From positions 12,146 through 76,145 of the forward strand of contig JAPLYL010000006.1 of the NCBI GenBank assembly GCA_026395595.1: a stretch of DNA of 64,000 nucleotides, in the 5' to 3' direction. Position numbers and translations under genes: made by a program. The first letter of the stretch is position 1; the number at the start of each line of letters is the position of its first letter. This DNA comes from Candidatus Parcubacteria bacterium (lineage in GTDB: Bacteria > Patescibacteriota > Minisyncoccia > Phycocordibacterales > CAIJYI01). The notes under the pieces were generated by a model. The model saw only the letters and a program-made list of their open reading frames with translations. It made no database searches and had not been told where the DNA came from. Below are positions 13,955 through 15,782 of this stretch, in pieces.

Positions 13955-14365
13955 ATGATTTACGATTTAAGATTTATGAATGACGACGACAAAAAAATAC
14001 GGGAATTTACTGATTTGAATGCTTGGAAAGAATCTCATAAAATTGTATTGCTAACATACGCAATAACAAAAACATTCCCAAAAACAGAAACATTCGGTTT
14101 ACAAAGTCAGATGCAACGAGCAGTAATTTCAATAACATCAAATATTGCAGAAGGATTTGGAAGACAAGGTTATAAAGAAAAAATACAATTTTATTACATG
14201 GCGCAAGGTTCGTTAACGGAATTAAAAAATCAATATATTGCCGCAAAAGATATAGGATATATGGATGTAAAAGAGTATGAAAAAGTATTGGATCAGATGA
14301 ATATAGCCCATAGAGTCCTTCAGGGTTTAATAACAAAATCAAAAACTTTCATAAATCATAAATAG
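13955..14365 (+). CDS. four-helix-bundle protein (23S rRNA intervening-sequence protein family, TIGR02436/PF05635-like), inserted between atpG and atpD
   Basis: AWKESHKIVLLTYAITKTFPKTETFGLQSQMQRAVISITSNIAEGFGR...QFYYMAQGSLTELKNQ matches the family signature; alternative start ATG 13976. Confidence 0.8.
   Translation: MIYDLRFMNDDDKKIREFTDLNAWKESHKIVLLTYAITKTFPKTETFGLQSQMQRAVISITSNIAEGFGRQGYKEKIQFYYMAQGSLTELKNQYIAAKDIGYMDVKEYEKVLDQMNIAHRVLQGLITKSKTFINHK
13957..13979 (+). repeat. tandem heptamers GATTTAC/GATTTAA/GATTTAT, the inverted partner of 14380-14411
   Basis: Its reverse complement CATAAATCTTAAATCGTAAATC matches the downstream CTTAAATCATAAATC (14 of 15). Confidence 0.55.
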
Positions 14366-14379
14366 TCGTCTATATTCCT

Positions 14380-14411
14380 GAATCTTAAATCATAAATCAT
14401 AAATCACAAAT
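14380..14411 (+). repeat. tandem heptamer repeat (AATCTTA AATCATA AATCATA AATCACA) ending at the atpD start codon
   Basis: Period-7 repeat; core AATCTTAAATCAT recurs at 16793-16805 just before atpC. Confidence 0.55.
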
Positions 14412-15782
14412 ATGAACAAAGGAAAAATAATTCAAATTGTTGGAAGCGTTATTGACGCAGAATTTGAAGGAGGGAAATTACCCCCGCTTCTCAATGCTCT
14501 TCAAGTAAAGAACGGCGATAAAACCATTGTCTTTGAAACGGCTCAACATCTTGGTTCTGGACGCGTGCGCGCTATTGCGCTCGGCACCACCGACGGACTT
14601 TCTCGTGGCATGGAAATTGAAGACACTGGCGCACAAATCAGCGTTCCGGTCGGCGACGGAGTTCTCGGTCGCATGTTCAATGTTCTCGGAGAAACCATCG
14701 ACGGAATAGACAAAGAACTTGAAACAAAAGAAAAATGGCCAATCCATCGCGCGGCGCCAAAATTCAGCGAACAGCGAACCGAAACGGAAATTTTTGAAAC
14801 GGGAATCAAAGTCATTGACCTCATCGCCCCGTTTTCCAAAGGAGGAAAGATCGGGCTCTTCGGCGGCGCCGGAGTAGGGAAGACGGTTCTTATCATGGAG
14901 CTCATAAACAACATCGCCAAGGAACACAACGGCTATTCCGTTTTTGCCGGTGTTGGAGAAAGAACCCGTGAAGGAAACGACCTGTATCACGAAATGAAAG
15001 GGTCGGGGGTTTTGGATAAAACCGCTCTCGTTTTCGGACAAATGAACGAGATGCCCGGGTGTCGCGCTCGCATCGCGCTTTCCGCCCTCACTATGGCTGA
15101 ATACTTCCGCGACGAATCCAAACAAGACGTTCTTCTTTTTGTGGATAATATCTTTCGCTATACACAGGCCGGATCAGAAGTTTCCACGCTTCTCGGACGC
15201 ATGCCGTCCGCCGTCGGTTACCAGCCGACACTCGCTTCCGACTTGGGAGAATTGGAAGAGCGCATTACCTCCACCGCCGAAGGTTCCATTACTTCCGTTC
15301 AAGCCGTGTATGTTCCTGCCGACGACCTCACTGACCCTGCGCCTGCCACGACCTTCGCCCATCTTGATTCCACCATCGTTCTCTCTCGCGCTCAAGCCGA
15401 GCTCGGTATCTATCCCGCCGTTGATCCGTTGGACTCTTCATCGTCAGTTCTTGACCCTCGCGTTGTCGGAAAAGAACACTACGAAGTGGCTCGTGGTGTA
15501 CAAAAAACCCTCCAGCGGTACAAAGAGCTTCGCGACATTATCGCCATTCTCGGTATTGATGAACTTTCCGCCGAAGACAAACTGACCGTCGCTCGCGCCA
15601 GAAAGATTCAAAAATTCCTCTCCCAGTCGTTCACCGTTGCGGAAGCCTTTTCCGGCCGACCCGGAAGCTATGTCCCTCTCAAAGAAACCATCCGAGGATT
15701 CAAAGAAATTCTGGAAGGCAAACACGACGACAAACCCGAAGGCGCGTTCTATATGGTGGGAGGGATAGACGAGGTGAAGTAA
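14412..15782 (+). CDS. atpD: F0F1 ATP synthase subunit beta
   Basis: Walker [15 protein letters not shown]; highly conserved beta sequence. Confidence 0.95.

Follow-up and report, generated by a model that had tools for sequence, protein, structure and literature searches.

A four-helix-bundle gene framed by inverted heptamer arrays as a candidate intervening-sequence-type cassette in an ATP synthase operon of Parcubacteria

What is a relative of the protein genes of 23S rRNA intervening sequences (IVSs) doing between two subunit genes of an ATP synthase operon, and what are the 7-nt repeats on either side of it for? The question is posed by a 64,000 nt stretch of contig JAPLYL010000006.1 from a Candidatus Parcubacteria bacterium (assembly GCA_026395595.1), which we refer to as the window. 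Its F-type ATP synthase operon starts with atpB at position 9280, continues with atpE, atpF, atpH, atpA, atpG, atpD and atpC, and contains three enlarged spacers. One of these, between the upstream host gene atpG (F1 gamma; 13047-13952, plus strand; PF00231, E 3.5e-80; stop codon at 13950-13952) and the downstream host gene atpD (F1 beta; 14412-15782, plus strand; PF00006, E 8e-74), is occupied by the gene of a four-helix-bundle (4HB) protein with heptamer arrays of opposite orientation at its two ends. On balance, we lean towards the view that this is an IVS-type cassette residing in an mRNA operon, and that the stem predicted from its ends is an RNA processing or insulating element.

The reading frame 13955-14365 matches PF05635 (23S_rRNA_IVP; E 5e-34, 117.1 bits against a cut-off of 33.8) and TIGR02436 ('four helix bundle protein'; 110.9 bits, cut-off 24), and the solved structure 2GSC (XCC0516) could be aligned by sequence to residues 9-119 of the protein (E 5e-18), which bears out the IVS-type family named in the original prediction, a reading of the DNA letters on their own. 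The open reading frame (ORF) of 136 aa proposed there is a real gene of this family, also called the 23S rRNA IVS protein or S23p family; its likely extent is 13976-14365 on the plus strand, giving 129 aa rather than 136. A database protein from a metagenome-assembled genome of Candidatus Parcubacteria (P0001) is 100% identical over 129 aa and starts at the ATG at 13976; an exact-sequence look-up of the 136-aa ORF returned no record, the deposited protein being the 129-aa form, and the seven extra N-terminal residues of the longer reading are translated heptamer array. Residues R48, S52, N56 and E59, forming an R-x3-S-x3-N-x2-E motif, are invariant across 27 homologs; a GxxRxxxSxxxNxxE motif (Zhang and Ye 2013 / Lin 2006) is described in PMC3936711. 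With dN/dS values of 0.05-0.08 at dS 0.6-1.3 in comparison with the orthologs of two other loci (L001 and L003), similar to those of atpD, the 4HB protein is kept under purifying selection as strong as that on atpD and therefore matters. It is the sole ORF of the element, and scans with Pfam, NCBIfam and PADLOC revealed no transposase, recombinase or nuclease domain in it and, for PADLOC, no match of the cassette to a defence system. The candidates for an own promoter of the gene match the consensus at 9 of 12 positions only, which is not above background, and no strong plus-strand promoter lies upstream. As viral contigs yielded one weak match (30% identity), there is no sign of the cassette being phage-borne.

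Both ends of the gene lie in an inverted repeat. The 5′ arm (13955-13990, plus strand) begins 2 nt after the atpG stop codon and carries GATTTAC-GATTTAA-GATTTAT at 13957-13977, exactly as predicted, followed by GAATGACGACGAC, and the 4HB ATG at 13976 lies inside it. The 3′ arm (14365-14400, plus strand) consists of the inner motif GTCGTCTATATTCC followed by TGAATC-TTAAATC-ATAAATC-AT and runs into a TAAATCA-type heptamer array of 4.4 units (14381-14411, plus strand; AATCATA x4.4 according to Tandem Repeats Finder, TRF) that reaches the atpD start at 14412; the inverted array had thus been recognised correctly, its quoted string starting at 14384 and not at 14383. The two arms, spaced 374 nt apart, form a 36-nt inverted repeat with Watson-Crick pairs at 30 of the 36 positions, in which the non-repeat inner segments GAATGACGACGAC and GTCGTCTATATTC join the heptamers. 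When 13940-14425 was folded with RNAfold, the anticipated long-range stem was closed in both the minimum free energy (MFE) and the centroid structure, and the arm-arm duplex reached -35.9 kcal/mol compared with -7.6 ± 2.7 kcal/mol for shuffled 3′ arms, with none of 500 shuffles being as good. An alternative, shorter partner of the 5′ arm (19 nt, 89%) is formed by two heptamer-like TCATAAA units at 14348-14366 (plus strand; TRF), which encode the C-terminal residues of the 4HB protein and its stop codon.

The same layout recurs throughout the gene family. A protein search returned 2795 homologs at E ≤ 0.001, the named ones mostly from Patescibacteria, and a sample of loci, 24 from species-representative genomes and 80 from metagenomes, gave 84 non-redundant loci for analysis. 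For each, the 130 nt surrounding the gene's start codon were compared with the 145 nt surrounding its stop, and inverted repeats of 20 nt or more were assessed with 100 shuffles as background. A significant repeat of this kind, beating all 100 shuffles, was present in 64 of the 84 loci, with z mostly 5-20. Self-similarity at period 7 amounted to 15.6 and 16.2 of 21 in the two flanks, compared with ~10 at periods 3-12 and 8.9 inside the ORF. The units change by lineage (GATTTAN, GTAGTAN, GGGTTAT, GAAAATG, CGAAATN, GAGTTAA, AGTATMT, GGGGTTT and others), and their number varies among orthologs, yet whatever the lineage the downstream array is always the reverse complement of the upstream unit. 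Mirror-image matches numbered 928 compared with 826 ± 10 after permutation of the unit order, and none of 500 permutations did as well: the two arms genuinely mirror each other, beyond being mere arrays of one unit. They comprise 3-5 units in 59 of the 64 loci, the 5′ arms ending a median of 7 nt ahead of where the protein match starts and the 3′ arms beginning a median of 3.5 nt past the stop, and in 57 of the 64 at least 70% of the 5′ arm is paired with the 3′ arm in the MFE structure of the whole cassette. Outside the flanks of 4HB genes, only 17 comparable arrays were found in the 217 kb of these loci.

Read inward from either end, the arms of the 64 significant loci are G-rich and C-poor regardless of the unit (21.6% G and 5.5% C in the 5′ arm, mirrored in the 3′ arm). 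The idea that period 7 serves to put stop or start codons in all three frames was rejected: 34% of the arms have stops in all frames, which is above shuffles and far from general. Among cultured organisms, 4HB genes carried on plasmids of Nostoc punctiforme and Trichormus variabilis are framed by inverted TCAGRAG/TCAGAAT arrays. The framed-gene layout is the same in at least six phyla of the sample, and its being shared across many bacterial phyla points to a widespread, barely studied insertion cassette.

At the corresponding atpG-atpD junction, other contigs (L001-L004) carry orthologs of 88-91% identity, and homologs at ~70% identity sit between ftsZ and a thioredoxin-reductase-like (trxB-like) gene (L005), between an F420-ligase-like gene and murJ (L007) and between two branched-chain ABC permease genes (livH/livM-like; L015), the latter three copies being bracketed by GATTYAN units upstream and the reverse complement downstream. 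In 67 of 73 callable loci (92%) the gene upstream runs in the same direction, both neighbours are co-directional ('++') in 51 of 63 and both opposed ('--') in none, and the median gap to the neighbour is 41 nt on each side, about one array length. That such cassettes land in protein-coding operons, as had been suggested for the window, is supported by many intra-operonic sites, to which an empty site in a sister lineage can be added (see below). No rRNA context was encountered among ~100 loci, all of which were pre-screened by motif without multiple long rRNA motif matches and 20 of which were searched with Rfam; in the 64-kb window, Rfam at the gathering threshold returned one tRNA only and no rRNA. 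ORFs of the 23S_rRNA_IVP type have been reported in 16S and 23S insertions of the candidate phyla radiation (CPR; bioRxiv 10.1101/2024.02.27.582315), and members of the 4HB family between cas genes (PMC3936711). In our sample, an rRNA location is the exception for this family and co-oriented operon insertion is the rule.

The history of the insertion can be followed in relatives of the window. Sequence identity of atpG and atpD places L127 as sister to a clade that comprises the window, L001 and L003, and L129 and L130 farther out as outgroups; in L127, L129 and L130 alike, atpD lies 24-31 nt past atpG without a 4HB gene. The empty junctions consist of 3-4 TAAAWCN units that start with the atpG stop codon and can be aligned to the 3′ array of the occupied sites. 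The most parsimonious reading of these alignments is that the cassette was gained once, at the base of the occupied clade and beside a pre-existing TAAAWCN array, which may have been the insertion target or the scar of an older cassette. The cassette borders fall in repeated units, and comparison with the empty sites revealed no unambiguous target-site duplication; presence/absence polymorphism and ORF-less derivatives, which characterize transposons and MITEs (miniature transposable elements with inverted repeats), were both observed. In this lineage, insertions have repeatedly reached the atp operon. Its junctions in other relatives hold different genes, namely a 47-aa ORF, a 104-aa ORF and an NYN-domain gene at L130 6310-7686, and ORFs of 225, 108 and 81 aa at L131 4900-6079 and 7461-7715.

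The window itself contains a second insertion of this kind, in the 1027-nt atpD-atpC spacer. The sequence AATCTTAAATCAT occurs exactly twice in the 64 kb, at 14381-14393 and at 16795-16807, ending 18 nt before the atpD ATG (14412) and 2 nt before the ATG of atpC (16810-17244, ATG at 16810). The original prediction had noticed this shared motif, with coordinates at atpC that were 2 nt off and a gap of 6 nt rather than 2 nt to the ATG, and had tied it to another insertion, which proved correct. Its homologous ends mark the spacer as another, 4HB-less cassette of this family, with the atpC-proximal motif as its 3′ terminus; the 4HB gene would have been lost and other cargo acquired. A degenerate 5′ end (15775-15807, plus strand; GGTTTTA-GGTTTTA-GATTGACGACG) is 73% identical to 13956-13988, first 4HB codons included, and the 3′ end (16771-16807, plus strand; TTCGTTTATATT...CCTAAATCTTAAATCAT; 82% repeat match) stops 2 nt before the atpC ATG, the terminal TCGTTTATATT...CCTAAATCTTAAATCAT of the spacer being homologous to the 3′ end of the first cassette. 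Paired with the 5′ arm of the first cassette, 16771-16807 yields -21.6 kcal/mol, and 0 of 500 shuffles were as good. The atpD-atpC spacer of L001 has intact GATTTAN arrays on both sides, and that of L003 has kept the 3′ array; tblastn detected no 4HB remnant inside the second cassette of the window.

The cargo of this second cassette (15808-16770), which lacks a 4HB gene, comprises three parts. A GC-rich structured element of ~180 nt (15810-15990, plus strand; closing stem 15826-15846 / 15935-15955) may be an undescribed non-coding RNA or a small mobile element; its 57-nt core recurs, reversed, downstream of atpD in a relative with 68% atpG identity (L130 ~6330-6480), and Rfam on 15760-16030 gave no match at E up to 5. 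It is followed by an antisense hydrophobic ORF of 51 aa (16010-16165, minus strand), for which a TTGACA motif was noted at ~16247-16252, likewise on the minus strand. Such antisense hydrophobic ORFs (50-61 aa) lie in enlarged atp spacers also at 12808-12960 (minus strand) of the window, L001 5882-6049 (minus strand) and L003 5938-6123 (minus strand), and the sequences of these small ORFs do not align to each other. Those of the atpD-atpC spacers, in the window as in L001 and L003, have ahead of them on the minus strand a conserved motif that contains TTGACA (cTTGTCAAGTAT on the plus strand). The third part is a solitary PemK/MazF-like toxin ORF (16272-16676, plus strand; PF02452, E 1.4e-9), beside which no antitoxin ORF was recognisable; a sigma-70-like promoter matching at 11 of 12 positions lies on the opposite strand (16765-16737, minus strand) and is directed into it.

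Arrays that frame no gene were also seen. Two heptamer-like units ATAAATTAAGATTTAAGG (12796-12813, plus strand) follow the terminator-like hairpin of atpA (11256-12755) in the atpA-atpG spacer and may be what is left of a third insertion bounded by arrays; a search for a partner arm found none, and the duplex test of the ends of the atpA-atpG insert was negative. Elsewhere in the window, two ORF-less inverted-heptamer hairpins on the minus strand (39236-39350 and 39970-40065; unit ATTGGAA/ATTTGAA, common loop of ~33 nt), which look like gene-less relatives of the cassette, have fold z-scores of -4.6 and -2.8 and flank a 183-aa minus-strand ORF (39345-39896), a putative frr. ORF-less heptamer hairpins occur in spacers of related contigs as well, at L127 3848-3936 (GGTTATA), L003 5805-5905 (GAATGAA) and L095 441-522 (CTGGAAG); the one of L127 sits between atpA and atpG, and its loop (gacaacgac) resembles GACGACGAC at the start of the 4HB ORF. 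A tandem repeat of another type, with 48/96-nt units in 3.6 and 2.2 copies and ~80% matches, was noted at 35817-36023, inside a 200-aa ORF (35616-36218).

The explanation towards which we lean would run as follows. The segment 13955-14411 would be a selfish or commensal cassette akin to ORF-bearing 23S rRNA IVSs, that is, a 4HB gene with start and stop codons framed by mirror-image 7-nt arrays, and it would have entered the atpG-atpD spacer in an ancestor of this Parcubacteria lineage, beside an existing TAAAWCN array. Having no recognisable promoter, it would probably be transcribed within the atp polycistron. In the RNA, the arms are predicted to form a 36-bp duplex that would enclose the 4HB cistron and sequester its start codon, and by homology with the IVS of Coxiella burnetii 23S rRNA this duplex is most likely a substrate of an RNase specific for double strands (RNase III). 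Its cleavage would release the cassette from the atpG and atpD messages or insulate it from them, and such insulation would allow the housekeeping operon to tolerate the insertion. We read the stem as an RNase III-type processing or insulating structure because the Coxiella IVS has the same anatomy; this would account for the tolerance of the cassette in essential, highly expressed units and for its co-orientation and lack of a promoter.

Several points weigh against this explanation. If the helix were selected in the sense RNA alone, G:U mismatches should be tolerated and A:C ones should not, and the mismatches of the arms across the loci, 47 of the G:U type and 49 of the A:C type, display no G:U excess; these counts neither support selection at the RNA level nor identify the functional strand, and arms that stay complementary at dS 0.6-1.3 and yet have no G:U bias fit concerted evolution or a role at the DNA level as well as RNA selection. 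The own ends of the second cassette pair weakly (-15.3 kcal/mol, with 29 of 500 shuffles as good). Ribosomes on the 4HB cistron could hold the stem open, its arms being 374 nt apart, tolerance of an insert between cistrons is explicable without cleavage, and a model of excision only leaves the purifying selection on the protein unexplained. A regular-expression scan of the six-frame translation found no RNase III signature motif, a result that covers 64 kb only and is uninformative.

Among the other readings, chance low-complexity sequence in an AT-rich genome has a negligible claim. A search for the heptamer pattern with up to two mismatches was by itself not enriched (8 compared with 5.8 in shuffles), which would suit it; however, the close matches in the 64-kb window all cluster at the borders of atp-operon insertions, the duplex energy lies far outside the shuffle distribution and the architecture recurs with different units in 64 of 84 independent loci, so that the family-wide flank, duplex-energy and unit-permutation tests refute it, and with it the worry that the arrays are AT-rich noise. 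The proposal, also made in the original prediction, that the TAAATC-type array is a translation-initiation element substituting for the absent Shine-Dalgarno (SD) sequence of atpD and atpC is very improbable. The array does lie directly upstream of both starts, also in empty-site relatives, it is A/U-rich and G-poor and hence unstructured when unpaired, and the TAACTGA arrays of Beggiatoaceae, which end 1 nt before starts, were proposed to be regulatory (PMC4679880). But an SD-like motif precedes just 9 of the 63 ORFs of the window and no atp gene, and the atpD of empty-site relatives is without one too, so its absence is normal here and there is nothing to compensate; moreover, the units are lineage-specific and unrelated elsewhere, G+C-rich ones included, the same units stand in inverted form at the opposite end of the cassette, which has no gene start, and the array is base-paired in the folded RNA. 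Many ORFs of the window have a TATAAT-like hexamer 5-12 nt ahead of the ATG (30606-31076, 51990-53210, 53241-54335, 54701-56044 and others), which together with the rarity of SD motifs suggests that leaderless or very-short-leader mRNAs are frequent in it.

Two further rivals fit part of the data and are compatible with the preferred model of an RNA processing or insulating stem. The arrays might act at the DNA level, where they would provide a mobile cassette with terminal inverted repeats or recombination sites, be this cassette a transposon with MITE-like ORF-less derivatives or an element akin to repetitive extragenic palindromic (REP) sequences and their REP-associated tyrosine transposases (RAYTs); complementarity would then result from concerted evolution or from the way the cassette moves, with the RNA stem as a by-product. 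This would accommodate the many unrelated cassette sites and the existence of empty ones, the ORF-less inverted-heptamer hairpins in the same genomes (the two of the window and those of L127 and L095), the two further array-bounded inserts of the same operon that have no 4HB gene, the missing bias of G:U over A:C, the differing unit numbers of orthologs and the matching array already in the empty sites, usable as a target or homology stretch. We nevertheless consider it unlikely: the sole gene encodes a 129-aa helical bundle with no transposase, recombinase or nuclease domain, no target-site duplication is recognisable, the orientation shared with the upstream gene in 92% of loci and the position of the start codon within the arm point to constraints on expression or RNA, and the Coxiella stem is demonstrably an RNase III substrate. 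Alternatively, a homopentameric 4HB ring might bind 3-5 tandem single-stranded RNA units in the manner of the trp RNA-binding attenuation protein (TRAP); bound to the 5′ arm, it would repress its own start codon and free the 3′ arm before the downstream gene, a self-regulating switch that would restore expression of the interrupted operon or its translational coupling. The prevalence of arms of 3-5 units agrees with such a ring, as do the homopentameric toroid of XCC0516 (Lin 2006, as cited in PMC4990558), with which the window protein aligns over residues 9-119, the relation to Avd, a nucleic-acid-binding pentamer of diversity-generating retroelements (DGRs), the invariant R-x3-S-x3-N-x2-E motif, a start codon within the 5′ arm and a 3′ arm that abuts the next gene's start, the strong purifying selection on the protein and the change of the unit sequence along with the lineage. 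We find it quite doubtful, as the binding is purely putative and drawn by analogy, ORF-less arrays of Xanthomonas and Nostoc reach 14-26 units (PMC4692102), several unit types occur beside a single 4HB gene in one genome or operon (window, L003, L127) and S23p is apparently not made in Coxiella (PMC4990558).

Since the 1990s the IVS/S23p family has had no function attached to it, and why bacterial genomes hold an excess of 7-nt tandem repeats is likewise unexplained; in our sample the family and the repeats co-occur as one architecture. It is conceivable, if unlikely, that 4HB (S23p/IVP) proteins and inverted heptamer arrays constitute one widespread, unrecognised system, in which gene-bearing cassettes would be the 'autonomous' members of the bacterial heptamer arrays (Xanthomonas GGGAATC, cyanobacterial STRR-like, that is, resembling short tandemly repeated repetitive sequences, and CPR GATTTAN), a pentameric ring would read 3-5 units of 7 nt and thereby spread the arrays or control the folding or processing of polycistronic host RNAs, and rRNA IVSs would be a rare special case. 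In the CPR, essential operons such as atp serve as recurrent landing sites of small cassettes, which bears on how tiny genomes tolerate insertions. For annotation, the arrays have consequences in the form of start codons called inside them and of false CRISPR or cas associations.

How does the cassette compare with known systems? Avd, the accessory protein of DGRs (bAvd, PF22296 / NF033474), has a homologous 4HB fold and is a pentameric nucleic-acid-binding partner; the window protein differs from it in scoring under the cut-offs (PF22296, 27.1 against 40 bits; NF033474, 31.5 bits where 80 are required). Among the ORFs at 8-20 kb, around the 4HB gene, neither a reverse transcriptase nor template or variable repeats were seen, and Avd genes are not known to be framed by heptamer arrays. 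REP/REPIN elements with their RAYTs present a single small gene flanked by inverted short repeats, with ORF-less copies elsewhere in the genome, and the cassette resembles them in layout only: RAYTs are transposases of the HUH Y1 type and REPs imperfect palindromes instead of tandem 7-mers, whereas the 4HB protein has no known catalytic domain. TRAP, a ring-shaped homo-oligomer that is combined with a tandem (G/U)AG array whose unit number is close to the subunit number, provides an analogy for the ring only, as its fold is unrelated to 4HB.

Unexplained heptamer repeats have been described in Xanthomonas (GGGAATC, 186 arrays with 70 convergent pairs), Nostoc (GGGGAYT), Beggiatoaceae (TAACTGA) and Calothrix (STRR). 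Like the arrays of the cassette, these are intergenic tandem 7-mers, often convergent, often ending at start codons and variable in unit number (PMC4692102, PMC4679880); unlike the cassette, most arrays of these types enclose no gene. Both papers treat them as G-quadruplex or regulatory motifs, and term searches in them found no mention of the 4HB family. The supplementary table of Rehm et al. 2015 (PMC4692102) lists an array of four GGGAATC units that covers the XCC0516 start codon and lies 6 nt from accB; XCC0516 is the crystallised 4HB protein. S23p-bearing IVSs with RNase III excision, the Coxiella heptamers, 4HB genes outside rRNA and the heptamer arrays of Xanthomonas, Nostoc and Beggiatoaceae are thus already known. 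In the searchable literature, which excludes subscription-only papers, only the Coxiella study was found to link heptamers to S23p, and no description was found of lineage-specific inverted heptamer arrays framing the 4HB family generally, of co-oriented 4HB cassettes in CPR housekeeping operons or of a link to the unexplained heptamer repeats.

The nearest counterparts are the ORF-bearing 23S IVSs (Coxiella burnetii helix-45; Leptospira, Brucella), with which the cassette shares the protein family and a size of ~430-450 nt. The Coxiella IVS has 428 nt and a 28-bp terminal stem, and its S23p ATG is immediately preceded by two or three GACAGAT heptamers and one degenerate copy. This IVS is cleaved in vitro by both Coxiella and E. 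coli RNase III, the 5′ cut falling at the first repeat (PMC4990558). The same anatomy of terminal inverted repeats forming a stem of 28-36 bp around the ORF is predicted for the window, where the stem is longer, and here too tandem heptamers of strain-variable number stand directly before the start, GATTTAC-GATTTAA-GATTTAT ending in the ATG at 13976. RNase III cleavage is known in vitro for the Coxiella element and predicted by homology for that of the window. Unlike the Coxiella S23p ORF, which is decaying and apparently untranslated, the 4HB ORF of the window is under purifying selection. 23S IVSs are defined by their location in the 23S gene (helix 25 or 45), whereas the host here is the mRNA operon at atpG-atpD; apart from this defining location, the element of the window has the other testable features of a 23S IVS.

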